Positions 22,870 through 42,370 of a DNA stretch of 62,260 bases are shown here, in pieces. Location: contig CAYXCB010000002.1 in assembly GCA_964463635.1 (NCBI GenBank), forward strand, positions 1 through 62,260, given 5' to 3'. This DNA comes from an uncultured Candidatus Saccharibacteria bacterium (GTDB lineage: Bacteria > Patescibacteriota > Saccharimonadia > Saccharimonadales > CAZARM01). The notes under the pieces were generated by a model that saw nothing but the letters and a program-made list of their open reading frames with translations, did not search any database and had not been told where the DNA came from. Numbering within the stretch: position 1 is the stretch's first letter; every line of letters starts with the position of its first letter. The position numbers and the translations under genes were made by a program.

Positions 22870-22878
22870 AAATTTATT

Positions 22879-23021: not shown

Positions 23022-23030
23022 CTCTCGAAT

Positions 23031-23123: not shown

Positions 23124-23166
23124 GCGAACCCCCATAAAACAGGTTTGATGGGGACCCCTGTGTTAT

Positions 23167-25299: not shown

Positions 25300-25716
25300 C
25301 TAAGTTGTAGTTGTAACTTTGGTGAGCACAAATCGTACGATGAACTGCGCCAGGGCAACTACGACCAGGCCAATGACAGCGTAGACGATGGTGCTTTTGG
25401 CACCGGCCACGTTACTATCATTACCGCCAGACGTAATGTATTTGAAGCCTCCGACGATAATCATAATCACTGAGACAATACCCACAAACAGAGAGAACAG
25501 ATTAATTATAGTCTTCAGGATACTGTTGATACGGTCATTGGCCTCAGTGTCATTGGTTGGATCACATTCTGTATCGTTAGCATTTAGCTGCGTACCGGCA
25601 CACAGACCTTTTTCAATTTCTGTCTGGGCATAAACTGCTGTAGGTACGGCTACAGGAACAGCTACCATGCCGAACACAGCCAGGCTGGTTAGAAGCGCTT
25701 TAATTTTTTTGATCAT
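25300..25716 (-). CDS. T4SS pilin-like protein, paralog 1
   Basis: 138 aa. Signal peptide, Cys pair (GLCAG...ECDP) and a conserved C-terminal two-TM hairpin ...VSVIMIIVGGFKYITSGGNDSNVAGAKSTIVYAVIGLVVVALAQFIV. Confidence 0.7.
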   Translation of the reverse strand: MIKKIKALLTSLAVFGMVAVPVAVPTAVYAQTEIEKGLCAGTQLNANDTECDPTNDTEANDRINSILKTIINLFSLFVGIVSVIMIIVGGFKYITSGGNDSNVAGAKSTIVYAVIGLVVVALAQFIVRFVLTKVTTTT

Positions 25717-25780
25717 CTTTTTAGTTACCCTTTCTTAAAATATAACTTTACTTATACCATACACTTCTTGGTGACATCAA

Positions 25781-26179
25781 CTACGGCGCAGTGACACGGT
25801 TGACTACAAAGCGGACAATTATTTGCGCCAAAGCCACAATAGCCAGGCCAACTAGAGCAAACAGAATAGTGTTTTTGGCACTGTTAATGGCATTGGAATC
25901 TCCGCTTGACATGATGTACTTTAGTCCGCCGACGATGATCATAATAACGGCTATAACTCCCACAACCAGGCTCAATAAGTTTATGACTGTTTTGATAGTG
26001 CTATCAACATCAGGGCTTCCGGTCGGATTAGCACAGGTATTGCCACCACCGCCTGTCAGACCTATGCCCTCACAGACATCGGCTTTGCTTTGGGCTGAAA
26101 CAAGTACTGCTGGGCTAAATGCTAGAAGGCAACATAAGGCAGTGAGGCTAAGGCTTAGTTTTTTGATAAATGATTTCAT
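25781..26179 (-). CDS. T4SS pilin-like protein, paralog 2
   Basis: 132 aa. Signal peptide, Cys pair, ...IAVIMIIVGGLKYIMSSGDSNAINSAKNTILFALVGLAIVALAQIIV. Confidence 0.7.
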   Translation of the reverse strand: MKSFIKKLSLSLTALCCLLAFSPAVLVSAQSKADVCEGIGLTGGGGNTCANPTGSPDVDSTIKTVINLLSLVVGVIAVIMIIVGGLKYIMSSGDSNAINSAKNTILFALVGLAIVALAQIIVRFVVNRVTAP

Positions 26180-26202
26180 ACGATAAATCTCCTTTATTAA
26201 AA

Positions 26203-26604
26203 TTATAACTTGTTTAGCACGAATGTAATTATTGCCCGCGACAGCAAAGTAATAACCATGCCGACTAAGGCATAAATAATGGTATCTTTAGCTTTATTAA
26301 GCCGTGCTGGGTCGCCGCCGGATATAACATACTGAACGGCACCAATTAATATCATTAATACCGAGGCGATTCCCACAACTATGGTGATTATGCCGGCCGC
26401 TTTAGTGACGACGCCGTTAGGGCCCAAAATCGAATTGTTGCCAGGAGTCTGTGGGGTAGCATTGTCTTTGCATAATGTAGCTTGCGGATTATTCAAGCAG
26501 ACTGGATCTAAAACTGCCTCTTGGGCCAATGAGACTCGGGGCACGGCCAGAAGTACTAGAACAAATAATGACACAAGGCTTAGGTAAGTGAATAAGTTTT
26601 TCAT
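26203..26604 (-). CDS. T4SS pilin-like protein, paralog 3
   Basis: 133 aa. Signal peptide, Cys pair (PVCLNNPQATLC), ...ASVLMILIGAVQYVISGGDPARLNKAKDTIIYALVGMVITLL. Confidence 0.7.
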   Translation of the reverse strand: MKNLFTYLSLVSLFVLVLLAVPRVSLAQEAVLDPVCLNNPQATLCKDNATPQTPGNNSILGPNGVVTKAAGIITIVVGIASVLMILIGAVQYVISGGDPARLNKAKDTIIYALVGMVITLLSRAIITFVLNKL

Positions 26605-26909
26605 ACTCGTCTTATCACAAAGTTTACAATACTAAAGCCAGCCAAACAGATAACTAACCCGAGCAGAGCGTATATAATTGTATTCTTGGCTTTGGCTATG
26701 CCTTGGGGGTCGCCATTGGACAAGGCGAACTTTAAGCCCGATATGGCAATAATAATCAGGGCTGCCCCGCCAGCCGCGGCAAAAACCAGCCTGAGTACTG
26801 AGCCCACAGTTCCTCCTGGACCATTAGTAATTTGGATTCTGGGCAGATTAACACTTGTATTTGGGTCTTTGATAATACTTTCGGCAAACATGTATAGATG
26901 CTTAATCAT
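26601..26909 (-). CDS. T4SS pilin-like protein, paralog 4 (short, no Cys pair)
   Basis: 102 aa. ...AALIIIAISGLKFALSNGDPQGIAKAKNTIIYALLGLVICLAGFSIV. Overlaps both neighbours by 4 nt. Confidence 0.65.
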   Translation of the reverse strand: MIKHLYMFAESIIKDPNTSVNLPRIQITNGPGGTVGSVLRLVFAAAGGAALIIIAISGLKFALSNGDPQGIAKAKNTIIYALLGLVICLAGFSIVNFVIRRV

Positions 26910-27412
26910 TTAATAGCTCCTGCGACTAAGTTAACTATAGCAGTCGCGAATATGGCAATAACCAGACCAATCAAGGCATTGATTATGGTGCTTCGGGACT
27001 CTTTGGTTCGCTCGGGTTCGCCTTGGCTGAGTATATATTGAATACCGCCAAATATGACAAAACCGATTGCCACAATTAAGCCTATCCTAAGGATGATTTC
27101 AAATACTGCCAGCAGGATAGACCCGATGGCGGCCCGCCAGTCAGTATTTTCTACTATTTCGCCTTTAGAATTTGTGGCCTTGTATGTTGGTAACTCAACG
27201 TTGCAGGATTTACCGTCATGTTTTACATCTAAATATTTGTACCAGGTCGGAAATTCCAGAAATGACCTGGATTTATCGCATTTGGGATCGACTGCCGCGT
27301 ATGCAGTATTTGGAGCCACTATTAAGCTACCGACGCTAAGACTGATAACTAAAAATATCAGTAACGTAATCTGCTTTGCTAGTTTCATAAAATACCTCCG
27401 GGCACCAGCCAT
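26906..27412 (-). CDS. T4SS pilin-like protein, paralog 5 (extended N-terminal domain)
   Basis: 168 aa. Signal peptide, Cys pair, ...FVIFGGIQYILSQGEPERTKESRSTIINALIGLVIAIFATAIV. Confidence 0.65.
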   Translation of the reverse strand: MAGARRYFMKLAKQITLLIFLVISLSVGSLIVAPNTAYAAVDPKCDKSRSFLEFPTWYKYLDVKHDGKSCNVELPTYKATNSKGEIVENTDWRAAIGSILLAVFEIILRIGLIVAIGFVIFGGIQYILSQGEPERTKESRSTIINALIGLVIAIFATAIVNLVAGAIK

Positions 27413-27933
27413 TGTAAGAGCGCAAACCCCATTAGGTAGAAAACCAAGGCCAACAGGGCATTGACTATGCGCCCCTTGGCAGCCGCTATGGCTTGTGGGT
27501 TATCTCTGGCCGTTGAGTATTGTATGCCCCCAACCGCCACCATAATCACAATCACTACGCCAACAACTGCCGACAGCACATTGATAAAAATTATCAAATA
27601 AGCGACTATGCCACAGGTTTCCTGGTTGATACCGACGTCGTTGCCGGCCGCGTCTTTACCAGTACAATCTGCGTCAGTAGTACCGCCGCCGCTTCCGCCT
27701 GCTGACTCAACACTGTCCAGGGTTGGGCTGCCAGTTTTGTGGTCAGCACATTTTTCATTATATTCTTGAGGGGTATAAGAGCCCCCTGGGAAGGTCGCCA
27801 ACGCGCCATCAGGACATGACTCCTCTATTAAAGCTGCAGCAGGCCTAGCAAAGCCGACGCCCGCAAGTAAAGATATGGCGAGAGCTGATATTAATACGTA
27901 ATAAAAGCGCAATTTGTATTTTGAGCTAAGCAT
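27385..27933 (-). CDS. T4SS pilin-like protein, paralog 6 (four Cys, longest variable domain)
   Basis: 182 aa. Signal peptide, ...VIVIMVAVGGIQYSTARDNPQAIAAAKGRIVNALLALVFYLMGFALL. First gene of the minus-strand pilin operon. Confidence 0.65.
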   Translation of the reverse strand: MLSSKYKLRFYYVLISALAISLLAGVGFARPAAALIEESCPDGALATFPGGSYTPQEYNEKCADHKTGSPTLDSVESAGGSGGGTTDADCTGKDAAGNDVGINQETCGIVAYLIIFINVLSAVVGVVIVIMVAVGGIQYSTARDNPQAIAAAKGRIVNALLALVFYLMGFALLQWLVPGGIL

Positions 27934-28988: not shown

Positions 28989-31900
28989 ATGCGTCGTAAA
29001 TTAGCCACCCTTGCAGCCTGCGGACTGATCCTGCTTTCAGTCTCTATGTCTTTATTAGTTAGCCTTTATCCGGTGCCAGTGAGCGCTACGGAAACTGTAG
29101 CAAAGGATGAGGAAAGGCGCCTGCTGATTGCCTTTAAATATTGTCTAAGCAATCAAAAGATCGATGAAAGCGACAATGGGAACCCTGCCGAAGATTTCAA
29201 CGACATATGGGATGACGGCAATAACGGCTTCAGTCGAGAAGACGTTGTGGTGGGGTTTGAGCTGGAAGGTGATAATGGCGTCAAGTCTTGCCAAACTAGC
29301 GTTATGCCAGGGCTGCAGCTTTTAGAGTCAAACGTATCGTCTCCCGAACAAGCCAATGCCCGACTATACGATTTGCTGGCAGATTCGGATGGCGGTAAAT
29401 TTAGGTCAAACCGAGACACCCTAGTTCGCCGAATAGATGAAGCCATTACAAAACTCGGCCCTGACCCCAGGCGAGGCTTTACCGCCAGCCGGCTGGCACC
29501 CCTTATAACGCATTGTTATGACCTTAAGACAGATGACCCCCAGCTAGATGCTGGCAGCCAGAACTTTCGGGCCAAACTAAAAGGTACTACTTATTTCTTT
29601 GAGCACACTAAGCCGGATGACGATAGTTTTGAATGGATCGACCAAGGAGACGGCGGCCGCGATGCGGGCGTCGGACAACGCTACAACACCATCGGCGATG
29701 TTTCACTTTCTTTCACGGCGGGCGGTGCTAAAGATTTTGAATCGTTTGAAGATGACTTTTTCCCATTTGGTTCAGACTTACAAAACTTTACAAATTCTGG
29801 GCACACCGGAACTGGGAATAATGGCATTTTAGATTGTAGGTTTATAAAGGAAAAGGTGGAGTCAGGATTCTTTACTGATGACGTCGTAGAATCAGTCAAT
29901 GTCGACACAAATTCTATAGTAACTGGTATAGATATCGATGGTGACGGTAAGGTTGACGAAGTAATTGAACAAGTAAACACCGGCCCGACTGGCGGTGGGG
30001 CCGGAGACGAGCCCTCGTGTGAAAACGACGGCGGCGAGTCGAGCTGGATCTTGTGTCCGGCGCTCCGGGTGGCCAGCAGCTTTTTGCAAACTATCGACGA
30101 GAAGCTAAATGACTTACTGAGTTTGGATAGCGATTATTACAATAATAGTGACCTGCGTGAAACGTGGCAGAGAATACGCAACCTGGCTTATGTGATCCTG
30201 ATACCTATTATGCTAGTAATGGTTATCAGCACAGCTCTGGGCTTTGAACTTATTAGCGCTTATACAGTTAAAAAAGCTTTGCCTAGATTTTTTGTGGCAA
30301 TACTATTCATGACTCTATCGTTTGATATTACTAAGTTTTTAATTATTCTAACTAATGACGTTGGCCAGGGGATGCAGGGCCTGGTAATTTCCTCTTTCAC
30401 AGGCCAAGGCGAGCTGACGCTGGCCAGTTTGTTTGACCCGGGTGGCTACTCTGGGGCGTTATTTACTGGAGCAGCCGTAGCGGGTGTCGTTCTTGGCCCA
30501 GGACTTATTCTTGTCCTTGCCAGCTATCTATTTGTCGGAGGCCTCGCACTGCTTATAGCGCTGTTGGCTTTTTCTCTCCGTCAAATGCTGCTAATAATGT
30601 CTATGGTCTTGGCGCCTTTAGCAATTTTGGCTTGGATATTCCCTGGCAATGATAAGCTTTGGAAATTATGGTGGGGAGCATTCTCAAAACTTCTCCTGCT
30701 TTACCCGCTTATTATGGTTCTGATTGGTGGTGGCAAGGCATTTGCAGCAATTGTTCAGCAAGTAGGCGTTAGCGACTTTTTGGCAACAGTTCTCAAGTTA
30801 GCGGCATATATAGGTCCTTACTTCTTTATACCAGCCATGTTCAAGTTTGCCGGCGGTATCTTTGCTACCGTTACCGGTATGGCCAACGACCGGAGCAAGG
30901 GCCTCTTTGACCGCCAAAAGAAATACCGTGAGCGTAAGCTTGGCGAAAAATTCACTGACGCCAAGCGCGGTGAGTACTACAAACGAGACAATGCCATTAG
31001 CCGGGCGGTTAATCGCGGCGGTATAGGAATTGGCGCAGGCTACAAAGGCGGGTTTGGTTTTGGCCGACGTGGCGAAGAAGCGCGAGCCAGAATCGGTCAG
31101 GAAGCAGCCACAGACGCTACGCAAAACAACAAAAAACTCCGTGAACTTATTCTCAATGACGACCATGGCGGCGCCGTGATGGCACTAAGTGGAGGAACAT
31201 TACGAGGCGCCGAGCAAGCCTCACATGATTTAGCCGCTGGTTGGATGCGATCAGATCCGACTTTGTCTGCCGCTGACGCTGAAACCCGCCGTGTTCGAGC
31301 TTTGGCCGCAGCACGGGCAACTGGTATTACGCGTACTAATGCCCAGGCCGCGATGACAATGATGATGCAAAACAAAGCTCGCTCAGTTGGTGATGGTGAC
31401 TGGGCTACTGTTCAGGCAGGTATCGATAGGCTCCATCCAAATAACACAACCGCGGCCGAGCAAATGAGAGACAGCGCCCAGTTCTTTGCGCGCGGTAATG
31501 GCCGAGCCGATCTTGGCGGTGCTACGCCTGGTGCCGGATATGGGCGCATCCAGCCAGGGCAATTGGTTACTGGCCATCCTTCTGGAGTACGTGCAGTAAC
31601 ACAAGAGCTACAGACTAGGTATAACATGGCGCTGGCGACTGGTAATTACGATGATGCTACCGATGCAGCCAGCGAAATCACAGCCTTGCGTAGTGTGGCC
31701 GGATCTGCCACGCCAGAAAACCGTGTTATACTTGGCGAATTCTTTGATGGAGTTGCCGGAATCGACACAGGTGATCAAAGAAGCCTGGACGAGCAGTTTG
31801 GTGATTTTCTTTCGTTTACATCCGGAGGTACGGCTGGAACCACAAATGAAGTCACCAATAGAATAAGAGCCCAAGCAGGCCTCTACGATCAAGGAACCAG

Positions 31901-32261
31901 AGGATTGCCCGTGGGCGCCCCGGGTGGACCGGGCGCTCCGGGTGGACCTCCTATCCCTCCCGCACCTCCTGCTGGTGGTGCCGGTGGGGCTGCAGGTGGG
32001 CCTCCCCCTCCTTCTGACCGCCGACTTAAAAGAAACATAGAGCCCCTAGTGGAGCTAGAAAATGGTATAAAACTTTATAAGTTCCAGTATTTGTGGAGCA
32101 ACCAAAGCTACGTTGGTGTTATGGCGCAGGATTTACTTGATACACACCCATCAGCAATTTCTATAGGTGCAAATGGTTTTTATCGCGTAAATTACACTCT
32201 CTTAGGACTAGAGATGCTCACCTGGGAAGAATACCTGAAGCGCACCAAAGCACCAGTATAA
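28989..32261 (+). CDS. VirB6/TrbL-like polytopic T4SS channel protein with a C-terminal tail-spike intramolecular-chaperone (peptidase S74-like) domain
   Basis: 1090 aa. Signal peptide, ~360-aa extracytoplasmic domain, a block of TM helices (about nt 30170-30910), a soluble region, a Gly/Pro linker (GAPGGPGAPGGPPIPPAPPAGGAGG...PPPP), then SDRRLKRNIEPL...VGVMAQDLLDTHPSAI...YRVNYTLLG. Confidence 0.65.
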   Translation: MRRKLATLAACGLILLSVSMSLLVSLYPVPVSATETVAKDEERRLLIAFKYCLSNQKIDESDNGNPAEDFNDIWDDGNNGFSREDVVVGFELEGDNGVKSCQTSVMPGLQLLESNVSSPEQANARLYDLLADSDGGKFRSNRDTLVRRIDEAITKLGPDPRRGFTASRLAPLITHCYDLKTDDPQLDAGSQNFRAKLKGTTYFFEHTKPDDDSFEWIDQGDGGRDAGVGQRYNTIGDVSLSFTAGGAKDFESFEDDFFPFGSDLQNFTNSGHTGTGNNGILDCRFIKEKVESGFFTDDVVESVNVDTNSIVTGIDIDGDGKVDEVIEQVNTGPTGGGAGDEPSCENDGGESSWILCPALRVASSFLQTIDEKLNDLLSLDSDYYNNSDLRETWQRIRNLAYVILIPIMLVMVISTALGFELISAYTVKKALPRFFVAILFMTLSFDITKFLIILTNDVGQGMQGLVISSFTGQGELTLASLFDPGGYSGALFTGAAVAGVVLGPGLILVLASYLFVGGLALLIALLAFSLRQMLLIMSMVLAPLAILAWIFPGNDKLWKLWWGAFSKLLLLYPLIMVLIGGGKAFAAIVQQVGVSDFLATVLKLAAYIGPYFFIPAMFKFAGGIFATVTGMANDRSKGLFDRQKKYRERKLGEKFTDAKRGEYYKRDNAISRAVNRGGIGIGAGYKGGFGFGRRGEEARARIGQEAATDATQNNKKLRELILNDDHGGAVMALSGGTLRGAEQASHDLAAGWMRSDPTLSAADAETRRVRALAAARATGITRTNAQAAMTMMMQNKARSVGDGDWATVQAGIDRLHPNNTTAAEQMRDSAQFFARGNGRADLGGATPGAGYGRIQPGQLVTGHPSGVRAVTQELQTRYNMALATGNYDDATDAASEITALRSVAGSATPENRVILGEFFDGVAGIDTGDQRSLDEQFGDFLSFTSGGTAGTTNEVTNRIRAQAGLYDQGTRGLPVGAPGGPGAPGGPPIPPAPPAGGAGGAAGGPPPPSDRRLKRNIEPLVELENGIKLYKFQYLWSNQSYVGVMAQDLLDTHPSAISIGANGFYRVNYTLLGLEMLTWEEYLKRTKAPV

Positions 32262-32310: not shown

Positions 32311-33342
32311 ATGGAAACGCCTACAACACAAACAGATCTACAACCCGCTCCTGATGCCCACTTACCGGAAGAGCAGCACAAACATGAACTGCTTGCAAGA
32401 GTAGGCGAGGAACTTAGGCTTGCTTATCATGGCGTGCTAAGAAACATTTCGGAACGGCGCATGTCCATGGGTGGTGACCGCATGGAAACCATGGACCACA
32501 AGGACGCTCTATACGCCGACATAGGCAACATAGCGGCCGGACAGGAAGCTGTGCTTACTGATACCGTTTCAGGTCAGACGGCAAGGCCTAGATCCTTCGT
32601 AGAGCGCTATATGGACAAGCGTCTGGATAAAAAGAACTGGCGAGCTGAACTCCAAGCCTCTGAGCGTAAGCGAACTGTCGCCGCTTACGGCGGTGAACGG
32701 TCGCAGACTATGCGCTCTGATAGCTTGATAGACACTTTTGCGCGTAAACGGGTCGCGGGTTCAGTGTACCGCGCTGGTGATATGTCAGCCGCAGAGTTAA
32801 GGCTCGCCCGCGCAGATATTCAAGCGACCCCCAGGGCGTTTGAGAATTCAGAACAGCGCAAGACCAGGCGTCGAGCTGATGGTGCCGTCAATGATCTAGA
32901 AAAAACAGCTGAGCAACCAGTACTTTCCAGATGGCGCGGGTGGCGGCGCGGGGAAGCCATCAAAGATATAAAGCGCCACCACTCGCGTGCCGAAAAGCAC
33001 CGTGTTCAGGAAGATAAGTTTGCTGCCAGGCGTGCCGAATGGCAAGCTGGAGCGCCTCAAAGAGTTCAAGCCGCGCAAGCGGAAAAGCAAAGGAAGCAGG
33101 AAAGACGTCGTGAACGAATGCAGAGAGTCGGTAATTTCGCACTGTCTGTTGGTCGTGGGATTTCGGATCGATTAAGTCAGCATAAAGACGAAACGGTCAA
33201 TGCTTACCACGAGGGTCTCTCGAATGAAGATGTTGCTGGCGGCCGGGTACAACAGCGTATCGATAAACTAGCTCGCTTAAGCGGCCGAAGATACTCCCGG
33301 ACCAAAACCAAATTAGCGGCTCGTCGCAACCCCGAAGCATAA
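32311..33342 (+). CDS. hypothetical highly basic Arg/Glu-rich soluble protein
   Basis: 343 aa with no TM. Long charged helical runs (RRAEWQAGAPQRVQAAQAEKQRKQERRRERMQR). Visibly GC-richer than its neighbours. Confidence 0.5.
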   Translation: METPTTQTDLQPAPDAHLPEEQHKHELLARVGEELRLAYHGVLRNISERRMSMGGDRMETMDHKDALYADIGNIAAGQEAVLTDTVSGQTARPRSFVERYMDKRLDKKNWRAELQASERKRTVAAYGGERSQTMRSDSLIDTFARKRVAGSVYRAGDMSAAELRLARADIQATPRAFENSEQRKTRRRADGAVNDLEKTAEQPVLSRWRGWRRGEAIKDIKRHHSRAEKHRVQEDKFAARRAEWQAGAPQRVQAAQAEKQRKQERRRERMQRVGNFALSVGRGISDRLSQHKDETVNAYHEGLSNEDVAGGRVQQRIDKLARLSGRRYSRTKTKLAARRNPEA

Positions 33343-33392: not shown

Positions 33393-34520
33393 ATGGCGAC
33401 GTATAAGGTACTTCAAGATATCGAGGCTGAAGATAAGCTGATCGGGCCGCTGAGCTTACGGCAGTTTATTTATGCCATTATGGTGATTGTTATTTTGTTT
33501 GTAGCTTGGCAGATGGCCAGAATCCAAATATTTCTAGGCCTGCCTCTGTTAATTCCAGCGTTATTTTTTGGGTTGCTGGCCGCGCCATTAGGAGCTTATC
33601 AGTCTAGTGAAATCTGGTTGCTGGGCAAAATACGCTTCTTTATAAAGCCGCGCCGGCGGATTTGGGATCAAAGCGGTATCAAACAGCTCGTCACTATTAC
33701 CGTACCGAAGAAAATCGAGCATCAGCTTACAAATAATCTGTCGCAGGTGGAAGTGAAGAGCCGGCTTAAGGCCCTGGCAAACACCATCGACAGCCGCGGC
33801 TGGGCTATCAAAAACGTTAATGAAAACCTATTCGCCCAACCCAGCTATATTAACAACCAAACCACTGATCGCTTGATTGATATTAGTAGCCTGCCACAAG
33901 AAGTAGCTAGTTACGACGTGTCGGCAACGGAGGATATACTGGATGAACAAAATAATCCGACCGCACAGCATTTAGATCAAATGATTAGTACATCTACTAA
34001 GACCCGGCGGCAGGATCTATTAGCAAATATGCGCAACAAGAGCCAGCCGACAACAACTCAAACACAGCCAGATTACTGGTTCATGAATCAAAACCCACCC
34101 GCTAAAACAGCGCCGGGTAGCGCTACGTTTAATAACTCCACCCTTGTAGCTCCTGGCACAACTTCTGACACAAACCCTACTACGAAAGCTGATGAGCAGG
34201 CTATTTTAAACCAGCTGCACGCCGACCACCAAAGAGGGAGTGCGGCTTATGGACACATGCGAACAATTCGTCCTGCGGACGAAAGTACACAGTACACAGT
34301 ACACAGTACACAGCAAAAAACTAAGACCAACGACAGTCAACAGTCAAACCAAGGACAGGCGACCGATAACGGAGGACGGACGACTGGCCGTACGGCCTCT
34401 GATCCTGCTATACTTGGACTTGCTAACAACGATGACCTAGATGTGGCTACTATCGCCCGGCAGGCCAATAAAAAACGAGGGCAAGAACCACCAGATGAAG
34501 TAGTGGTCAGCCTGCGCTAG
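33393..34520 (+). CDS. PrgI/VirB3-like T4SS membrane protein with a long Q/T/N-rich tail
   Basis: N-terminus YKVLQDIEAEDKLIGPLSLRQFIYAIMVIVILF plus a second TM, typical of PrgI-family proteins. The C-terminal ~180 aa are low-complexity and include a heptad-array-encoded STQYTVHSTQ. Confidence 0.65.
   Translation: MATYKVLQDIEAEDKLIGPLSLRQFIYAIMVIVILFVAWQMARIQIFLGLPLLIPALFFGLLAAPLGAYQSSEIWLLGKIRFFIKPRRRIWDQSGIKQLVTITVPKKIEHQLTNNLSQVEVKSRLKALANTIDSRGWAIKNVNENLFAQPSYINNQTTDRLIDISSLPQEVASYDVSATEDILDEQNNPTAQHLDQMISTSTKTRRQDLLANMRNKSQPTTTQTQPDYWFMNQNPPAKTAPGSATFNNSTLVAPGTTSDTNPTTKADEQAILNQLHADHQRGSAAYGHMRTIRPADESTQYTVHSTQQKTKTNDSQQSNQGQATDNGGRTTGRTASDPAILGLANNDDLDVATIARQANKKRGQEPPDEVVVSLR
34282..34309. 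repeat. heptanucleotide array inside the PrgI-like coding region (AAAGTAC ACAGTAC ACAGTAC ACAGTAC)
   Basis: Four 7-nt units read directly from the sequence, translated as ...ESTQYTVHSTQ.... Confidence 0.6.
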
Positions 34521-34559: not shown

Positions 34560-34910
34560 CTAAGACGGTAACTTTCGAATAAAACCAGCCAGTATCATCG
34601 ATACCTCGTTAACCTTTATTAGTAACTCCTTCTGTTCACCTTCTTTGATATAGCCTAGGTCCAACGCAATAATTAGCATGGACTCAACCTCAGCCGCCGA
34701 TCCTTTGGCAATAAAAAGATAGTTTTTAAACGATTTATTGCTCTGTTTGGCATAGCCTTCAGCCACGTTATTCATGATTGATATAACAGCGCGTTGAATT
34801 TGGTCTCTGAAACTATAATCTCGACAGTCATTAAACGCACTATAAATATTAACTGTCAGATCCCGCCCTTTTTGCCAAGCAAGTATTTCTTTAAATGATC
34901 TTATGGGCAT
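34560..34910 (-). CDS. four-helix-bundle protein (IVS-protein family), cassette 2, antisense to the T4SS operon
   Basis: MPIRSFKEILAWQKGRDL...IMNNVAEGYAKQSNKSFKNYLFIAKGSAAEVESML. Start set at the ATG that aligns with the paralogs; the track start (34934, GTG) lies in the repeat array. Confidence 0.85.
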   Translation of the reverse strand: MPIRSFKEILAWQKGRDLTVNIYSAFNDCRDYSFRDQIQRAVISIMNNVAEGYAKQSNKSFKNYLFIAKGSAAEVESMLIIALDLGYIKEGEQKELLIKVNEVSMILAGFIRKLPS

Positions 34911-34930
34911 TGCGTCTATTTTAGCACCTG

Positions 34931-34958
34931 GCACTCTGTACTACACACTTGGTACTAT
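34931..34958. repeat. heptanucleotide array, inner right arm of cassette 2 (GCACTCT GTACTAC ACACTTG GTACTAT)
   Basis: Four 7-nt units just upstream of the cassette ORF start. Confidence 0.5.
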
Positions 34959-35127: not shown

Positions 35128-36027
35128 ATGGACCCAAATACACAGAATCAAAACCCCAATAACATACCCGGACCAGCGGCTCCTGGCGTACCACCACCTC
35201 CGCAATATGCGCCCATGCCAGGTATGCCCCCTCAGTACGCTGCCGGACAGCCATCTGCCCAGCCCGGGCCGGCCACGCCGCCACCACCGCACGTAAAAAG
35301 CAACCCTAACAGTACCCAAAACACTTTGCAGATCGCTGAAATTCGCGACGGCGTTGTGATTATGAACGATGGGTCATTCCGTTCGGTTGTTATGGTCAAA
35401 TCGATTAACTTTGACCTGATGAGTCCCCAGGAGCAGGAAGCTGTCGAATTCAGTTTCCAGGGCTTCCTAAATTCATTATATTTCCCGGTTCAGATTTTTG
35501 TACGGTCGCAAAAGGTTGATCTGCGGCCATATATAGAGAAGCTAGATAAAATCCGCACCGAGCACGATAATATGCTACTCGCATTATTAATGGAAGATTA
35601 CATAGATTACATTGCTAATTTGTCTATGCAAACCAACATTATGGATAAACGTTTTTACGTTATAATCCCGTACTACCCGACTACTGATATTCAGAAAGCC
35701 ATCACTCAAAGTAAAGACTTTTTCTCCGGGCTTAAGGGCTTGTTTAGCAATAAGGAATCCCATGTCACTATCAATGAACAAGACCTGGTCAAAGCCAAAG
35801 ACGAGCTGCGCAACCGTGTCCAGTCGGTTTTGAATGGGCTGCAGCAGAGCGGGATCCAGGGTTTGCCGCTTGATACCCAGGAGTTAATCGAGCTCTACTA
35901 CGACACTTATAATCCTGATACAGCTACCCGGCAGCAACTCAAAAACTTTGATGATTTATCAGCCCCGGTTGTAGGCAAGGGCCAGGGCAGTGCGCCTCAG
36001 CCGCAGCTAGACAGGGAGCTCAAGTGA
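35128..36027 (+). CDS. T4SS-associated protein with a proline-rich N-terminus
   Basis: 299 aa. PGPAAPGVPPPPQYAPMPGMPPQY..., then a globular part (LQIAEIRDGVVIMNDGSFRSVVMVKSINFDLMSPQEQEAV). Sits between the PrgI-like gene and VirB4. Function unknown. Confidence 0.55.
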   Translation: MDPNTQNQNPNNIPGPAAPGVPPPPQYAPMPGMPPQYAAGQPSAQPGPATPPPPHVKSNPNSTQNTLQIAEIRDGVVIMNDGSFRSVVMVKSINFDLMSPQEQEAVEFSFQGFLNSLYFPVQIFVRSQKVDLRPYIEKLDKIRTEHDNMLLALLMEDYIDYIANLSMQTNIMDKRFYVIIPYYPTTDIQKAITQSKDFFSGLKGLFSNKESHVTINEQDLVKAKDELRNRVQSVLNGLQQSGIQGLPLDTQELIELYYDTYNPDTATRQQLKNFDDLSAPVVGKGQGSAPQPQLDRELK

Positions 36028-36428
36028 TGAAAACTGAAGCACGAAGCCCGAAAGCAGAAACAAGCACGAAGCCCGAAAGCAGAAACGTAAAACGTTTCGA
36101 TCTAGAGGATCGAACTCTATTATTCGCAAGGGACGTGCGAAGTTTTATTTCTCAGCTTCCTAAAACAACTGCTTATTTTGAGGATGGTAAACAAGTAGTA
36201 CGATCATCGGGATCAGTCGGTGCTAACTATTTAGAGGCGAACGAATCGCTTAGCAAGAAAGACTTTGCGATGCGGATCAAAATTGCTAAAAAAGAAGCCC
36301 GAGAGACTATATACTGGCTTGAGGTAATAACTGCTCCGCCAGAATTATTGGTAGCACAACAGTCTTTGCTAAAAGAAGCGACGGAATTGATGAACATATT
36401 AGGTGCAATTTTAAGGAAGAGTCAGTAA
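36027..36428 (+). CDS. four-helix-bundle protein (IVS-protein family), cassette 3, sense within the T4SS operon
   Basis: ATG overlaps the upstream stop (TGATG). The core RFDLEDRTLLFARDV...SVGANYLEANESLSKKDFAMRIKIAKKEARETIYWL is a diverged member of the family. The first ~20 codons are encoded by the repeat array. Confidence 0.75.
   Translation: MKTEARSPKAETSTKPESRNVKRFDLEDRTLLFARDVRSFISQLPKTTAYFEDGKQVVRSSGSVGANYLEANESLSKKDFAMRIKIAKKEARETIYWLEVITAPPELLVAQQSLLKEATELMNILGAILRKSQ
36036..36086. repeat. repeat array, left arm of cassette 3 (GAANNNN heptads; 23-nt GCACGAAGCCCGAAAGCAGAAAC present twice, period 25)
   Basis: Exact copies at 36039-36061 and 36064-36086. Contains CCCGAAA, which is complementary to the right arm. 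Confidence 0.65.
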
Positions 36429-36455
36429 TGTTTCATAATTCTGATTTCAAATTTG

Positions 36456-36483
36456 TTTCGGGTTTCGGGTTTCGGGTTTCGGG
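36456..36483. repeat. (TTTCGGG)x4 array, right arm of cassette 3; also a canonical G-quadruplex motif
   Basis: Four perfect heptads. G3 tracts at 36460-62, 36467-69, 36474-76 and 36481-83 are separated by TTTC. Ends ~10 nt before the virB4 SD (GGAGG). Confidence 0.7.
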
Positions 36484-36507
36484 TTTGAAAAACCGGAGGT
36501 TCTTCTA

Positions 36508-38424
36508 ATGGCTTTCGGCAAAAACAAACGTCCCCAATTTGATCCTGTTACCCTAGCCCAGAGCCAACGCCATGCTGAACAGCAAGAAGTCCAGGCTGCT
36601 TTCCAGAAAGGCATTACGGCTTTGCGTGATTTTATCGCACCGTCTTCATTGGAATTTGGCAGCACACACTTCCAACTTGGTACCCGCTATGCTCGAACCT
36701 ACTACGTCTATGGGTACCCTCGTCAGGTTTATACGGGCTGGCTATCGCCCATGATCAACATGGACGAAGTAATGGATATGTCGCTGTACATTTATCCTGT
36801 CGAGAGCCAAGTTGTCTTGGAAAACTTGCGCAAAAAAGTTGGCCAACTGGAAGCCGGCCTACAAATCGATGCTGAAAAGGGTCGAGTCCGTGATCCTGGC
36901 AAGCAGGCGGCGATTCAAGACGCCGAAGAAATGCGCGACAAGCTACAGGTTGGTGAAGAGCGCTTCTTCCGCTTTGGTTTTTACTTCACGATTTATGCCG
37001 GTAGCTTGGACGAACTCGAGTTTGTAGCCCACAAGGTTGAATCAATTCTGGGTCAGCAGTTGGTTTACTCCAAGCCGGCAACTTCGCAGCAAGAGCAAGG
37101 GCTCAATAGCACGATTCCGGCCTTTACGGACCAGCTGCAAATCCGCCGCAACTTTTCAACTGGTGCGCTATCAACCAGTTTCCCATTTACCTCAGCTGAC
37201 CTAAGCCAAGAAAATGGTATTTTATACGGTGTAAATATGCATAACTCCGGCCTGGTTATCTTTGATCGTTTTAGTCTAGAAAACAGCAACTCAGTAGTCT
37301 TCGCTAAATCCGGCGCTGGTAAATCGTTTACGGTTAAACTCGAGGCCCTGCGCAGCATGATGTTTGGTACCGAAGTGTTTATCATTGACCCGGAAAACGA
37401 ATACCAGCGAATGGCCGAAGCTGTCGGCGGAGCTTACGTTCGACTAAGTTTAAATTCAGCGACTCGTATCAACCCATTTGACTTACCAAAAGTTGTCGAT
37501 ACTGAAGAAGCCGACAATGCTCTTCGTAGCAACCTGATTACCCTGCACGGCTTGCTCCGACTCATGATGGGCGGAGCCCAGGCCCAAATGCTAGGTGGGG
37601 GCGCTACTATGATGCCGGCTCTAAGCCCGGTTGAAGAGTCAGACTTAGATGCCGCCCTAATTGAAACTTACGCCAAGGCCGGTATTACTAATGACCCCTT
37701 AACTCACACCGGTCAGCCTCCCACGATTGCTGACCTCTATGACACTCTGCTGCATATGGGCGGGAGCGGACCCCAGCTAGCTCAGCGCCTGCGCAAATAC
37801 ACCACAGGTACATTTGCCGGTATTTTCTCTCAGCAAAGCAATACCGATATCAACAACCCGTTAGTAGTCTTTAATATCCGCGACCTAGAAGATGAATTAC
37901 GCCCGGTAGCCATGTACATTGTGCTCAATTACATCTGGAATAAGACTAAATCTGATCAAAAACGCCGTATCTTGATTGTTGACGAAGCATGGCAATTAAT
38001 GAAGTATGAGGATTCAGCCAACTTCTTGTTTAGCCTAGCTAAACGAGCCAGAAAATATAACCTAGGTATTACTACTATCACTCAAGATGTGGAAGACTTT
38101 ATGGGTTCTAGGATGGGTAGAGCTATTGTGGCTAACGCTAGTATGCAGATATTGCTCAAGCAATCACCCTCAGCAGTTGATGTCTTGACTGATGTGTTCA
38201 AATTAACCAGCGAAGAGAAGAAACGTTTAAGCCAATTCCCGGTCGGGCAGGGACTGTTCTTTGCCGGCCAGAACCACGTTCATATCCAAGTTACTGCTAG
38301 TCCAACAGAGACTGGGCTGATTACCACCAACCCTGAGCAAGTCCAGCAAATGGCCTTAGCCGGCGAGTTAAATCAACCCCAAGGCACCATTGACCTTAAT
38401 AACCCGGCACCGCCGGCGGTATAA
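36508..38424 (+). CDS. virB4: VirB4/PrgJ/TraE-type T4SS ATPase
   Basis: 638 aa. Walker A VFAKSGAGKSF, Walker B RRILIVDEAWQL, ITTITQDVEDF, and an N-terminal domain with ...YPRQVYTGWLSPMI.... Confidence 0.9.
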   Translation: MAFGKNKRPQFDPVTLAQSQRHAEQQEVQAAFQKGITALRDFIAPSSLEFGSTHFQLGTRYARTYYVYGYPRQVYTGWLSPMINMDEVMDMSLYIYPVESQVVLENLRKKVGQLEAGLQIDAEKGRVRDPGKQAAIQDAEEMRDKLQVGEERFFRFGFYFTIYAGSLDELEFVAHKVESILGQQLVYSKPATSQQEQGLNSTIPAFTDQLQIRRNFSTGALSTSFPFTSADLSQENGILYGVNMHNSGLVIFDRFSLENSNSVVFAKSGAGKSFTVKLEALRSMMFGTEVFIIDPENEYQRMAEAVGGAYVRLSLNSATRINPFDLPKVVDTEEADNALRSNLITLHGLLRLMMGGAQAQMLGGGATMMPALSPVEESDLDAALIETYAKAGITNDPLTHTGQPPTIADLYDTLLHMGGSGPQLAQRLRKYTTGTFAGIFSQQSNTDINNPLVVFNIRDLEDELRPVAMYIVLNYIWNKTKSDQKRRILIVDEAWQLMKYEDSANFLFSLAKRARKYNLGITTITQDVEDFMGSRMGRAIVANASMQILLKQSPSAVDVLTDVFKLTSEEKKRLSQFPVGQGLFFAGQNHVHIQVTASPTETGLITTNPEQVQQMALAGELNQPQGTIDLNNPAPPAV

Positions 38425-38453: not shown

Positions 38454-41249
38454 ATGGGCGAACCAGCACCAATATACGATGACGAACAGTCCCCAGATCC
38501 ATACACGCCGAAACCGCGTTTTGGCGTTGTTGATGGTGAAGGCCAGTCAACGCCTAGGAGCAAAGGACATTTAAAAAGTGTTAGCAGTAATGACTTAAAT
38601 GCTGCCGAGCAAGCCGGTGCAACACCAGAACTGGATCTACCAAGCACCGCTGAGAAAAACTTAACCGGTGATAGCGACCAGATTGGAGGCGGCTTCAAAA
38701 AAGAAGGTGACAGGCGCAAGGGCCGCTTTTCAAGAAAACAGAAGATTGCTGGCGGAGGCATAATAGGCTTATTGCTTGGCGGGGGTGTTGGGATAATAAC
38801 GCTCATTAGCGGCCCTTTGCAGCTATTGCATTTATCTAAAACTCTTTTACCCAACTTTGCCAATCAAGATCATGCTAGCAATGTCAGGATTCGTGGCTTA
38901 TACAGGTGGGCTAAAACTGGCAACCCTGGCGAAACGCGAATAGGTGCATTGAGCAGCAAATTTGTGTATCCAGAGATCCAAAAAAGTCTAGCCAAAAATG
39001 GTATCGCCATCGGCACGGACAGGTTTACTGGTCAAATAACAACGTTAACGATTGAGCCGGCCAAAAACCCCCAGTATCAGGGATTGTCACCCGATGAGGC
39101 GAGAGCCCGCATTGCGGCCGATAACGGTATTGACCCAGCCAAGGTATCTCAGACAAGCGGACTAAATGGTGGAAAGTTTTCATTTAACCTTAGGGACTCG
39201 AATATTGCCGCTAAAAGGGCGGCCATAAGAACCCATGTTGAAAGCCAAAATCTTGGCAAGATCAAGACGGCCTTACAAATCAGAACGCTTGGCAAGGTCC
39301 ACAATGCGCCTTCCTGGCTGCACCCCTTGAAACGGGCGGGGGCTTCGATCGACCTTAAGATATCTACTCGCATCCAAAGATCTAACCTATTTAAGGAATA
39401 TGAAGCAAGACGTACCGCTAAAGCGGCGGCCAGAACCGCCGCTGCCGAAGCGCGGGTAGCTGCGGTCAAATCAAAGTTAAGGATTGGTGCCGGCGCCGCC
39501 GGAGCTGTACTGCTTGGATCTACTGCTGTTTGCGTAGCAAAGGATGTGGCCAGCGAAGTTCCAGCCCTCAATCGCGAGAACATCGTGATACCGGCTATGA
39601 AGTCGTCCGTGGACGCCATGGCGCTAGGTGCGCAAATCCAGTCCGGCCACGTGCCATCCGACGGCTTTGAACAAATGGGCACAATTGTTCAAAACCTTAA
39701 GGACGAGGAAGGCAGGAGTATTTGGGAAGGCAGGGCCCTACAGTCCGAACTGGGCCATGAAACTGGCGAGGATATTGACCCGGATCTTAAGCAAGCATTT
39801 TCACCCGAGAGCTCAGCGTCGAATATCGAACAAGCCCTTGATTCACTTGGAGCTGATGCCCTATGCAGTAAGGCCGGACAGTTGTTTTCGACAGTTGCGG
39901 GTACAGCGCTATTATTTGTTCCGGGGGTTGGCGTGGCAACCAAAATCGTCTCGACAGCCGCTGGTGCAGCCGTTATTACTGCTATCACCACACTTCTGCC
40001 AAGAATATTGGATAATGATACTGCTATTGGGGTCTTGCACCAAGGTCCCAACGGGGGTAATGTCGACGCCTACGGCGCCCGTGAGGCCGCTAATTCTTCA
40101 TTCCGCTCAACCGGCGGCTCAGAGCTCAGCTCAGCTCAAAGCGCGGCACTAAAAAAACAACACGATCAACTGGACAAGGAAGAATTTCAGGCCAAGAGCT
40201 TTGCCAGCCGGATATTTGACGTATACGACCATCGATCAATCGCAGGTAAGCTTATCGACAAAACAAGCAGCAGCCCCGTCCAGAATGTGGCAAGTGCTGC
40301 GCGCGGGCTAACGAGCGGAGCCTGGTTGACAGGTTTGTCATCTCTATTCACACCTAAAACATACGCCGCTACTGAAGTCCCTTATGATTATGGCTTCCCG
40401 GAGTACGGATTTAGCCTTAGTGACCTTGAAGACCCTTTAGTAGAAGATCCTTATGCCAATGCCGATGAAGTGGCAAAAATCCTTAATGGACTTGAAGGTC
40501 AGAAATATATCGATAAAGCTAAGGTTTGTTTTGGTGTTGACATAGTAAAAGGCGCCGATGGCTGGGATGCCATTACCAGTACTGATGTTAACCCCAGCAC
40601 CGCCGACTATGCCGAGGCAAACTGTCTAGAGGCCGGCAATAATGATTGGTTGCGAGTCCGCTTCTTTGTTTTCGACTCCCAAGCAATGAATAGCTACGCA
40701 TGTTACGAGGGGGACGAGTCTTCCTGCACCCAGCTTGGTTTTGGTGCCAATACAAGCAGCTCCACCGGAGCGGCCACAGGATCTGGTGTAGATACTTCAG
40801 CAATGGCTTGTCCGAGCGATCCTGATATCACCGACGGCGGGGTTGTGGAAAAGTATGGGCCAGGTAAAATTCTGCAGTATAGGATCAGGCTGTGCCTCGT
40901 GTTTGGCATCGATGTCAATGTTTCAATAGCGCAAAATACCGCCAATATGATCCGGGCTGCAGCGGCCCAAGGAGTAACACTGCAAGGGGGAGGCTATCGA
41001 ACTTATGAGGAGCAAGTAGCTTTAAGAGTAGACCATGGATGCGCCAGTGATTCCTTACCAGCGAGTGCTTGTTCGCCCCCCACGGCCTCGCCAGGAACCT
41101 CCAATCACGAAGATGGCGAAGCAATCGACTTTACTAATTGTGGATCGCGTGGCACAGCCTGTTATCAGTGGCTAGCAACTAACGCGGCGACATATGGGCT
41201 AATTAATCTACCTAGTGAGCCGTGGCATTGGTCAAGGACGGGCAACTAG
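38454..41249 (+). CDS. large membrane-anchored T4SS protein with a C-terminal LAS-type (VanY/peptidase M15-like) peptidoglycan peptidase domain
   Basis: 931 aa. TM GGGIIGLLLGGGVGIITLISG. The C-terminus has GGGYRTYEEQ, SNHEDGEAIDF (SxHxxGxAxD) and EPWHW. Confidence 0.7.
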   Translation: MGEPAPIYDDEQSPDPYTPKPRFGVVDGEGQSTPRSKGHLKSVSSNDLNAAEQAGATPELDLPSTAEKNLTGDSDQIGGGFKKEGDRRKGRFSRKQKIAGGGIIGLLLGGGVGIITLISGPLQLLHLSKTLLPNFANQDHASNVRIRGLYRWAKTGNPGETRIGALSSKFVYPEIQKSLAKNGIAIGTDRFTGQITTLTIEPAKNPQYQGLSPDEARARIAADNGIDPAKVSQTSGLNGGKFSFNLRDSNIAAKRAAIRTHVESQNLGKIKTALQIRTLGKVHNAPSWLHPLKRAGASIDLKISTRIQRSNLFKEYEARRTAKAAARTAAAEARVAAVKSKLRIGAGAAGAVLLGSTAVCVAKDVASEVPALNRENIVIPAMKSSVDAMALGAQIQSGHVPSDGFEQMGTIVQNLKDEEGRSIWEGRALQSELGHETGEDIDPDLKQAFSPESSASNIEQALDSLGADALCSKAGQLFSTVAGTALLFVPGVGVATKIVSTAAGAAVITAITTLLPRILDNDTAIGVLHQGPNGGNVDAYGAREAANSSFRSTGGSELSSAQSAALKKQHDQLDKEEFQAKSFASRIFDVYDHRSIAGKLIDKTSSSPVQNVASAARGLTSGAWLTGLSSLFTPKTYAATEVPYDYGFPEYGFSLSDLEDPLVEDPYANADEVAKILNGLEGQKYIDKAKVCFGVDIVKGADGWDAITSTDVNPSTADYAEANCLEAGNNDWLRVRFFVFDSQAMNSYACYEGDESSCTQLGFGANTSSSTGAATGSGVDTSAMACPSDPDITDGGVVEKYGPGKILQYRIRLCLVFGIDVNVSIAQNTANMIRAAAAQGVTLQGGGYRTYEEQVALRVDHGCASDSLPASACSPPTASPGTSNHEDGEAIDFTNCGSRGTACYQWLATNAATYGLINLPSEPWHWSRTGN

Positions 41250-42370
41250 TGATCCGACGCATTTACATACTAGTAACACTCTTTGTTATGTTGGGTAGTT
41301 TTGTGCCAAGAGCCAGCGCCCTTACTGCAGATCAGAGAAGAGTTATTGATTCAGGAGTCCATTACTTCGATGTAGAGACCGGCTGCGCCACAGCACCCGT
41401 TGTCAGCCTGTCGGGCAGTACGTACGGTACTAACATTACGGGCGGTGATACAACTATACAAAAAATTACACCATCTCCTTTTAGCGGCACTCCAATCACT
41501 CCAACTGGCGTAACCCTACACTGGACAGGAGGTAACCCCAATCAATCTGTAGAAAGTTTTATATCTAATATCAGCAGCAGAGGCTTTTCGGTACAGCTGT
41601 ACATTGATGGCAATGGAAATGTCTACCAGCTGGTTGATCAGTTAAATACTCTAACCGCTCACGCAGACGGGGCGAACAGCAAGACCATCGGTATAGAAAT
41701 TGCCGCCGGCAGCGATGGTACCGTAGAAACAGCGGCTAGAGAAATTAACGCTAATACTATTCAAAAACAAGCCGTCGCGCGTACTGTAAAATATCTTGTT
41801 GACACTTACGCTATGAGCATCGCCCCAGATGTCCCGAACCTCAAAGGTATCTTGTCCCACCACCAAATTTCTCCCGATCGTAAAAGTGATGTGGGAGATC
41901 AGTACCATGCAGAGATTGTAAGCGCTGTTAAAAATAATGGCCAGTTGACCATATCAAACAGTGGGAGTTGCTCGCCAGTAGCGACCGAGGGGGGTGGAGG
42001 TGACTCAGAAGCGAACAAGCTCCTTGGCCAGCAGTTGGCAGCCGATAAAGGCTTTGCCGGATCCGAGTGGGCCTGTCTGCTTGAATTGTGGACCAGAGAA
42101 TCCGGTTGGAACCAGGCGGCGGATAACCCCAAATCATCAGCTTATGGCATCCCCCAAGCGCTTATGGGTGTACATAAAGCCAATATTGACGCTAGCTACC
42201 CAGGATACTATGATGCCGAAGTGCAAGTCACACCCGGAGAAAAAGCCACCTACAATTATACTGGCGGAGACCCCGTTGTCCAGATTAAGTGGGGCTTAGA
42301 TTATATAAATGGGCGATACCGCACACCATGCGCTGCACTGGCGTTTCATGACGCGGAGGGTAATTACTAG
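41222..42370 (+). CDS. bifunctional cell-wall hydrolase: N-acetylmuramoyl-L-alanine amidase (amidase_2/PGRP type) plus lytic-transglycosylase-like domain
   Basis: 382 aa. GVTLHWTGG...TAHADGANSKTIGIEIA...SHHQISPDRKSDVG, then a C-terminal LELWTRESGWNQAADNPKSSAYGIPQAL. The start is uncertain because it overlaps the previous gene by 28 nt. Confidence 0.7.
   Translation: MALVKDGQLVIRRIYILVTLFVMLGSFVPRASALTADQRRVIDSGVHYFDVETGCATAPVVSLSGSTYGTNITGGDTTIQKITPSPFSGTPITPTGVTLHWTGGNPNQSVESFISNISSRGFSVQLYIDGNGNVYQLVDQLNTLTAHADGANSKTIGIEIAAGSDGTVETAAREINANTIQKQAVARTVKYLVDTYAMSIAPDVPNLKGILSHHQISPDRKSDVGDQYHAEIVSAVKNNGQLTISNSGSCSPVATEGGGGDSEANKLLGQQLAADKGFAGSEWACLLELWTRESGWNQAADNPKSSAYGIPQALMGVHKANIDASYPGYYDAEVQVTPGEKATYNYTGGDPVVQIKWGLDYINGRYRTPCAALAFHDAEGNY

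Follow-up and report, generated by a model that had tools for sequence, protein, structure and literature searches.

Intramolecular chaperone (ICA) domains of the Peptidase_S74 family (PF13884, MEROPS S74) have been described at the extreme C-terminus of phage tail spikes and fibers, such as endoNF of K1F, T5 pb1, phi29 gp12, and S16 gp37. In tail spikes, cleavage is gated by a sensor Arg located in a triple β-helix (PMC4690869). ICA domains also occur in the eukaryotic membrane-tethered transcription factors MyRF/MrfA, and cleavage of MyRF requires ICA trimerization, is independent of the upstream stalk, and takes place at a P|S bond (PMC8326128, PMC3742443). A further group of relevant proteins comprises the extended VirB6 subunits of type IV secretion systems (T4SSs), including F-plasmid TraG, pCW3 TcpH, Rickettsiales RvhB6, and MPF-FA VirB6 proteins of 700-900 aa, which join a VirB6-like hydrophobic core to large hydrophilic and unstructured extensions (PMC12857230). 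In Patescibacteria, a monoderm-type T4SS lies near the replication origin and is reported to be essential for epibiotic growth in Southlakia epibionticum (PMC12102498). The present analysis concerns a 62,260-nucleotide stretch of DNA from an uncultured Candidatus Saccharibacteria bacterium (contig CAYXCB010000002.1, hereafter the window), in which an open reading frame (ORF) at 28989-32261 (+) encodes a 1090-aa VirB6-like protein that ends in a compact Peptidase_S74 domain. The favored reading, given a probability of roughly 55%, is that this domain acts as an optional, self-removing oligomerization and maturation tag on the VirB6-like tail, resembling MyRF rather than building a fiber.

The domain has the motifs of the phage ICAs, the same five-residue distance between Ser and Lys, and the same position at the extreme C-terminus, and its predicted monomer fold matches phage ICA predictions. 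It differs from them in its size of 82 aa, with a short terminal helix and no tentacle insertions. Moreover, it is preceded by a disordered linker, whereas the phage domains follow a triple β-helix with a sensor Arg, and it is carried by a polytopic secretion-system subunit instead of a trimeric fiber. The likeness to MyRF/MrfA lies in the presence of an ICA in a non-fiber membrane protein and in the Pro|Ser cut, which is predicted in the window protein. However, the ICA of MyRF is placed between cargo and anchor, and the cargo is freed, while that of the window protein is terminal. Because the membrane anchor is N-terminal, only the S74 module would be released. MyRF also keeps a long trimerizing helix and a short β-helical stalk, unlike the window domain. 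As for the extended VirB6 proteins, none has been reported with a self-cleaving S74 domain. The processing of F TraG is not known to be autoproteolytic by an ICA domain.

The identity of the domain is established as follows. Positions 32013-32258 (+) translate to the 82 residues SDRRLKRNIEPLVELENGIKLYKFQYLWSNQSYVGVMAQDLLDTHPSAISIGANGFYRVNYTLLGLEMLTWEEYLKRTKAPV, exactly as quoted in the initial annotation, and the Gly/Pro linker described there is indeed found directly upstream. Residues 1009-1051 match PF13884 with 28.4 bits (E 2e-6) when the full protein is scanned, and the 82 residues alone reach 33.1 bits. Both scores exceed the gathering cut-off of 22 bits, and Ser and Lys are retained, in agreement with the proposed Peptidase_S74 assignment. 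Further motifs include a Y-x-F-x-Y strand, a G-V-M-A-Q-D helix, and V-x-Y, which follow the S-D-x-R-x-K signature. The latter is encoded by TCT GAC CGC CGA CTT AAA (S-D-R-R-L-K; 32013..32030, +), in which TCT (32013-32015) specifies Ser1009, the predicted nucleophile, and AAA (32028-32030) specifies Lys1014, the predicted general base. The spacing is identical in the catalytic dyads of MyRF (S587/K592) and endoNF (S911/K916; PMC8326128). A six-frame scan of the window yielded this single S/T-D-x-R-x-K site with an S74-like continuation. At the level of sequence, the C-terminus is confirmed as a true Peptidase_S74/ICA-type domain with catalytic Ser and Lys.

The bond that would be cut differs slightly from that first proposed. 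Cleavage had been placed at the Ser of the SD motif, but the bond cut in characterized domains is the one N-terminal of Ser, as in MyRF (P586|S587; PMC8326128) and T5 pb1 (T1263|S1264; PMC4690869). Because characterized domains cut on this side, the cut is predicted at P1008|S1009. By analogy with them, it would free a 9.6-kDa fragment and leave a chain of ~104 kDa.

A word-indexed search found S74 in 2 of 54 homologues, but such searches badly under-report the fusion because they favor short proteins. An exhaustive phmmer search with the 82-aa query against 1.84e9 (1.84 billion) cluster representatives returned 3,883 matches at E <= 1e-3. A VirB6-like core, scored with a hidden Markov model (HMM) built from window residues 340-650, is present in 45 of the 150 best matches, including every match of at least 600 aa. 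With P0002 and P0004 added, the uninterrupted VirB6-S74 fusion is represented in at least 47 distinct clusters at 50% identity. In all fusions, the S74 domain is strictly terminal, with 76-98 aa from Ser to the end, and 47 of 48 match PF13884 in this region. The domain always follows a low-complexity linker, which over the 40 residues preceding Ser consists of G 19%, A 17%, P 15%, and Q 10% in 38 fusions, and the residue next to Ser is Pro in half of them (19/38). Ten positions are invariant in the 48 fusions (S1009, D1010, K1014, Y1030, Y1034, G1043, A1046, Q1047, V1067, and Y1069), and the Ser, Asp, and Lys of S-D-x-x-x-K are also invariant in 50 stand-alone relatives. The two invariant Tyr residues may correspond to the 'cutting-hole' aromatics of MyRF (PMC8326128).

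The distribution within Saccharibacteria was surveyed in 79 loci from species-representative genomes, containing 78 VirB6-like ORFs with a complete C-terminus. All related loci are from Saccharibacteria, and the window protein belongs to a minority of ~5% with S74. The domain occurs in ~4 of the 78 species representatives (L027, L030, L005, and L024) and is fused in the first two; the same fusion is found in the syntenic locus L001. In about 95% of homologues, the protein stops at an equivalent low-complexity tail. A scan of the strand bearing the VirB6 gene in the 79 related loci showed no S74 domain as a separate neighboring gene. Joining of a separate S74 gene by mis-calling is ruled out, as S74 occurs in these loci solely at the VirB6 C-terminus. 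In L024, TGA stands in place of the first Arg codon of SDRRLK (tca gac TGA cgc ttg aaa) and the S74 sequence continues in frame; this codon may reflect a recent loss, an error in sequencing, or a case of read-through.

Two of these loci show how such genes appear in public records. In L005, a scaffold gap of 10 N (6773-6782) splits the VirB6-S74 fusion (P0007/P0116) of a public metagenome-assembled genome (MAG). The gene is called truncated, as 'O-antigen polymerase, partial', and the S74 piece stands as a separate fragment. In L024 (7275-7556, MAG HKST-UBA72), the VirB6 ORF ends in TTSD-TGA, and the otherwise intact S74 remnant (S-D-stop-R-L-K) carries the NCBI annotation 'tail fiber domain-containing protein' (P0300, 89 aa).

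The weakest alternative is an artifact or pseudogene, namely a frameshift, a mis-assembly, or a decaying phage remnant read through from virB6, for which the in-frame TGA in one related genome, the scaffold gap in another, and the lack of any record of the exact window protein in public assemblies could be cited; it is very improbable, because at least 47 clusters carry the fusion uninterrupted, S74 is their most conserved segment and never a separate neighbor, and no phage genes flank the VirB6-S74 gene. The survey shows the fusion to be genuine and recurrent, and an assembly or frameshift artifact is ruled out.

The S74 domain is the best-conserved part of the carrier protein. Among 38 full-length fusions, mean pairwise identity is 56% in S74, compared with 33% in the core and 19% in the tail. 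In a neighbor-joining tree of 204 S74 segments, 46 of 48 VirB6-borne domains fall into one clade of 54 leaves. The rest of this clade consists of short entries, of which P0055 and P0116 are recognizable VirB6 C-terminal fragments; the others are probably such fragments as well. The single clade indicates that S74 was acquired once, in one sub-lineage of the VirB6-like family. In a tree of VirB6 cores, carriers are interspersed among non-carriers: the window protein groups with the S74-less P0011 and with P0007, whose S74 lies behind the scaffold gap, while P0002 and P0004 cluster with P0008, which lacks S74. The nonsense codon of L024 has the appearance of a loss in progress. The domain is patchily distributed yet the best-conserved segment, and is consequently considered optional for the family but strongly constrained where it is kept.

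The carrier is named VirB6-like on the basis of family-level matches, synteny, and the literature, with no direct profile match. For the 1090-aa protein, 54 homologues were found, with E-values as low as 7e-190, and 51 of them bear a precomputed PF19590 (TrbL_3) match; that of P0001 is unmarked, i.e., at E <= 1e-5. Their source names, given in few cases, are Saccharibacteria or Patescibacteria, and family members in public databases bear names that include 'O-antigen polymerase, partial' and 'hypothetical protein'. Scans against Pfam-A and NCBIfam returned no TrbL/VirB6 match for the window protein or four homologues. PF19590 was not returned by the Pfam-A hmmscan even at E <= 10, and the model was seemingly missing from, or changed in, the copy scanned. 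A family profile searched against PDB sequences matched TrwI weakly (E 6.1). The top two Foldseek matches among 350,542 PDB chains are TrwI/VirB6 of R388 (7o3v_G and 7o3v_F), at non-significant values (E 0.26-0.39, probability 0.63-0.80, TM 0.29-0.34). Hydropathy and the structural model place a polytopic core of five or more helices at residues 387-633, and the gene lies in a T4SS cluster alongside VirB2, VirB3, and VirB4 homologues. The VirB6/TrbL-like core read from the sequence at the outset is borne out by these family matches and by the locus, and the identity of the protein as a VirB6-like subunit of the Saccharibacterial T4SS is indirectly confirmed.

The VirB6-like (TrbL_3 family) subunit gene (28989..32261, +) can be divided into six parts on the basis of hydropathy, conservation, charge, cysteine content, and the AlphaFold model (mean predicted local distance difference test score, pLDDT, 72). 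An N-terminal signal or anchor helix covers residues 1-33 (28989..29087, +) and ends in VPVSA, with a hydropathy peak at residues 4-33 and a model helix at 2-26. It is followed by a variable, probably extracytoplasmic domain (residues 34-396; 29088..30176, +) with six Cys and low pLDDT. The conserved, VirB6-like part is a polytopic hydrophobic core with a WIFPGNDKLW motif (residues 397-633; 30177..30887, +), near-invariant columns, and pLDDT values of 80-97. Next come a basic juxtamembrane segment and an all-α C-terminal domain, which is probably cytoplasmic (residues 634-969; 30888..31895, +). The model is confident in the core (~370-630) and in this all-α domain, where the helices at 690-960 exceed a pLDDT of 90; the N-terminal domain and residues 970-1012 are of low confidence (pLDDT < 50 in the latter). 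A disordered Gly/Pro/Ala linker (residues 970-1008; 31896..32012, +) leads to the compact Peptidase_S74/ICA auto-processing domain (residues 1009-1090; 32013..32258, +), an assignment based on PF13884, the model, and BFVD matches. The stop codon is TAA at 32259-32261.

The S74 domain belongs to a compact sub-type. Characterized ICAs have ~130-150 aa, as seen in T5 pb1 (133 aa; PMC4690869) and in the 3gud chain (129 aa), compared with 82 aa here. The long C-terminal helix that forms a three-fold coiled coil and is the main driver of trimerization in MyRF and endoNF (PMC8326128) is not present: ~20 residues follow V-N-Y, with a model helix of eight residues at 1079-1086. The monomer model has a pLDDT of 85 and finds 13 matches in BFVD at E <= 1e-3 (TMq 0.56-0.68). 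By name, these comprise nine phage ICA-domain proteins, one DUF4214 protein, one LysM protein (Megaviridae), and two unnamed entries. A sequence profile searched against the PDB gave weak matches to S16 gp37 (6f45), phi29 gp12 (3gud), and MyRF (7dc3) at E 0.04-0.4, limited to the solved ICAs that would be expected. A PDB sequence search with the C-terminal 123 aa was discarded, as it gave only spurious synaptobrevin matches driven by the Pro-rich linker.

Compact S74 domains are not restricted to VirB6-like proteins. They also form the C-terminus of structural virion proteins in podophages of Rhizobium and Brucella, with the Ser ~66-70 aa from the end, and of many varied small bacterial proteins, many of them with signal peptides. 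This variety of carriers points to a general C-terminal module of bacterial proteins, beyond fibers. One carrier resembles a type IV pilin (N-terminus GFTLIELMIVVAIIGILAAIA), others bear Sec- or Tat-like signals, and tandem copies of the domain occur (P0173, P0056, P0094, P0103, P0140, P0105, P0108, and P0113).

For the self-removing tag, the most likely mechanism, drawn by analogy with MyRF, is that the domain trimerizes and is then shed. The S74 modules of three neighboring subunits would associate through their flexible tethers of ~40 residues, and this association would complete the Ser1009/Lys1014 active sites. Cleavage of each chain between Pro1008 and Ser1009 would then release the 9.6-kDa module. 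The mature ~104-kDa subunit would end in a Pro-rich tail, as the unfused homologues do from the start. Since these homologues end in an equivalent tail, the cleaved window protein would resemble them. The likely role of the tag would be to gather VirB6 tails, or to report that they are gathered, during assembly of the machine, most probably on the cytoplasmic side of the membrane. Such a domain would behave like the ICA of MyRF, whose cleavage is controlled by its own oligomerization, and unlike a tail-spike chaperone, which templates the adjoining triple β-helix.

Residues 631-700, which follow the last hydrophobic helix, are basic family-wide, with K+R of ~16 against D+E of ~5. Cysteines are distributed very unevenly along the protein. 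The N-terminal domain contains at least two Cys in 86 of 86 family members (2.2% of residues), with C344 and C356 invariant, while the C-terminal region has no Cys in the window protein and 9 in 35,814 residues family-wide. A similar division is found among other proteins of the window: exported ones have even Cys counts (pilins 2/4/2/2/4, VanY 12, amidase 4, and the VirB6 N-terminal domain 6), whereas cytoplasmic ones have 0-3, with none in the 937 aa of VirB4. This dichotomy suggests that surface proteins in this organism are disulfide-bonded. The basic post-membrane segment and the Cys pattern favor a cytoplasmic tail, with odds, judged from these sequence features, of about two in three. 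Classical VirB6 topology is consistent with this placement.

Several points weigh against the self-removing tag. Trimerization and cleavage of the compact domain would have to be accepted by analogy, and the domain lacks both the long helix that drives trimerization in MyRF and endoNF (PMC8326128) and the upstream β-helix 'sensor' Arg of endoNF and T5 (PMC4690869). A Foldseek search of the S74 monomer against the PDB returned no solved ICA (best E 2.4; kinases and serpins), which would be expected if solved ICAs are intertwined trimers, a form that a monomer model does not reproduce, but which leaves the ICA fold a prediction. A protease that cuts off just its own tag would be an odd use of the enzyme, and ~95% of homologues do without S74. 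VirB6 homologues have been modeled as pentamers (PMC12857230), which misfit a three-fold module. In addition, only two N-proximal VirB6 helices are membrane-embedded in the cryo-EM structure of R388 (PMC12857230), a topology with which the tail could be extracytoplasmic, and the S74 family is also found on exported proteins.

Among the alternatives, the first is that the domain does not cleave but remains as a permanent oligomerization or docking knob, which would, for example, cluster T4SS complexes or bind VirB4, the coupling protein, or substrates. Its compact form, in which the elements gating the cleavage of phage ICAs are missing (PMC4690869), would agree with such a role, and high conservation across the whole 80 aa would also suit a binding surface. 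Moreover, neighboring machines might be linked if a trimeric knob sat on a pentamer. However, the invariance of Ser, Asp, and Lys in the 48 fusions and the 50 stand-alone relatives is hard to explain without catalysis, and all characterized S74 domains with this dyad self-cleave (PMC8326128, PMC4690869). A non-cleaving knob is therefore considered unlikely.

Another possibility is that the released product is what matters, i.e., that the 82-aa S74 trimer freed by assembly-dependent cleavage, or the unmasked Pro-rich C-terminus, acts as a signal, a regulator, or a T4SS substrate. There is precedent in MyRF, where the ICA drives release from a membrane protein (PMC3742443, PMC8326128), and in T5 pb1, where a site is unmasked on cleavage (PMC4690869). 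Many close S74 relatives are stand-alone proteins of ~100 aa, and in L024 the module behind the stop codon is annotated as a gene of its own. However, that remnant is without the catalytic Ser and may be decaying. No gene partner specific to S74-bearing loci was found in the comparison, as the gene downstream of the fusion (32311-33342) has homologues in S74-less loci. A functional product thus has a small chance of being correct.

A similarly small chance is assigned to a C-terminal region outside the cell, where S74 would chaperone a trimeric fiber or needle that contacts the host bacterium and would then be shed. Such an extension on the secretion channel was the conclusion of the initial annotation, and it is not supported by the comparison. 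In its favor, the C-terminal domains of extended VirB6 proteins, F TraG among them, lie outside the cytoplasm, and compact S74 occurs on the signal-peptide and type IV pilin-like proteins mentioned above. S74 domains classically fold trimeric fibers (PMC4690869, PMC8326128), the bulk of R388 VirB6 is periplasmic (PMC12857230), and Saccharibacteria are epibionts with a T4SS reported to be essential (PMC12102498). However, the AlphaFold model contains no trimeric stalk before S74, whether β-helix, β-prism, coiled coil, or collagen repeat: the ~40 residues directly upstream (within 970-1012) are predicted to be disordered, and those at 690-960 form a confidently all-α, repeat-like domain. A collagen-like triple helix in the linker was rejected, as GAPGGPGAPGGP has just four G-X-Y triplets and irregular linkers are seen in other fusions. 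Most homologues have no S74 and end in the tail itself, the basic segment and the zero-Cys pattern favor the cytoplasm, VirB6 homologues are expected to be pentameric (PMC12857230), and the domain is of the compact type.

Beyond the self-removing tag as such, two wider proposals can be made, namely that oligomerization-gated self-cleavage by a phage-derived ICA serves as a maturation or assembly checkpoint of a T4SS channel subunit in epibiotic bacteria, or that the tail is extracytoplasmic and has a three-fold structure at the epibiont-host surface; both are tentative, and it is rather doubtful that either would hold. The statement that no T4SS subunit with this fusion had been described agrees with the literature and plasmid searches. 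The paper on Patescibacteria T4SSs makes no mention of an S74 or chaperone domain on VirB6 (PMC12102498), and a full-text literature search for Peptidase_S74/PF13884 led chiefly to papers on phages, extracellular contractile injection systems (eCIS), and giant viruses, plus a small number of unrelated papers, with no VirB6 fusion. Among 72,556 plasmids, there are 75 matches to this S74; each is either labeled 'tail fiber domain-containing protein' or lacks annotation, and no TrbL/VirB6 gene is among them. The novelty would lie in the carrier of a known self-cleaving domain and in the module borne by an extended VirB6, neither of which had been described.

If the checkpoint proposal is correct, it would be the first use of an ICA domain in a secretion machine, and under either proposal a phage tail-fiber assembly device would have been recruited to the machine that these parasites need for living on their hosts. 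The roles of the extensions of extended VirB6 proteins are an acknowledged gap (PMC12857230), and the S74 tail gives an experimental handle on subunit assembly and on the side of the membrane at which the tail lies. The range of S74/ICA domains is also widened by a compact sub-type of ~80 aa on many non-fiber bacterial proteins. In practice, the label 'tail fiber domain-containing protein' on compact S74 domains can mislead prophage calling in Candidate Phyla Radiation (CPR) genomes.

The surrounding locus has the same components as the T4SS described for Patescibacteria/Saccharibacteria (pilins, PrgI/VirB3, VirB4, VirB6, and a wall hydrolase; Quiñonero-Coronel et al. 2025, PMC12102498) and the same position near oriC/dnaA. 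Five tandem VirB2-like pilin genes lie at 25300..27933 (-), with PF18895 in 5/5 (E 6e-13 to 1e-5). The gene upstream of VirB6-S74 has no homologue in any locus compared. Downstream follow a PrgI/VirB3-like gene (33393..34520, +; PF12666, 31.5 bits) and a split VirB4 (35128..38424, +). The N part of the latter (35128-36027) is TraC-like, as it is named in syntenic loci, and the P-loop part (36508-38424) matches P-loop_TraG, AAA_10, and DUF87. Genes for cell-wall hydrolases, a 931-aa VanY-domain protein (PF02557) and an Amidase_2 protein (PF01510), occupy 38454..42370 (+), and hydrolases are found at the equivalent position in L001 and L002. The genes recF, dnaN, and dnaA lie a few kb beyond them. 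This gene order is common to the window, L001, and L002.

In these three loci, VirB4 is encoded by two ORFs (L001 9652-12471 and L002 13548-16569), of which the TraC-like N-terminal one spans ~270-315 aa and the P-loop one ~635 aa. The window locus also contains two genes of the 23S_rRNA_IVP family (PF05635, four-helix-bundle), which is the family of the Avd proteins of diversity-generating retroelements (DGRs). One of them, at 34560-34934 (-), lies between prgI and the N part of virB4, and the other, at 36024-36428 (+), lies exactly between the VirB4 halves. L001 and L002 have the split VirB4 without PF05635 genes.

Two further observations were made outside the fusion itself. A large family of ~100-aa S74 proteins has the pattern 'MKKTYEKPxLVKxGxLSKxTA…SDRRLKTNI' (P0067-P0102; L003 5392-5823; L004 4307-4738). 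The N-terminal sequence conforms to the lasso-peptide leader motif YxxPxLxxxGxxxxxTx; another 8-12 residues then lead into the compact S74 domain. A 37-aa ORF with the same leader-like motif comes directly after, and an integrase fragment adjoins. The possibility that these proteins are lasso-peptide precursors was set aside, as lasso biosynthesis genes were not found near P0089, and the fit to the motif is regarded as a resemblance. In the window, four tRNA genes are located upstream of the T4SS locus at 19378-23258 (-), namely three for tRNA-Ser (cga, gct, and tga) and one for tRNA-Arg (gcg).

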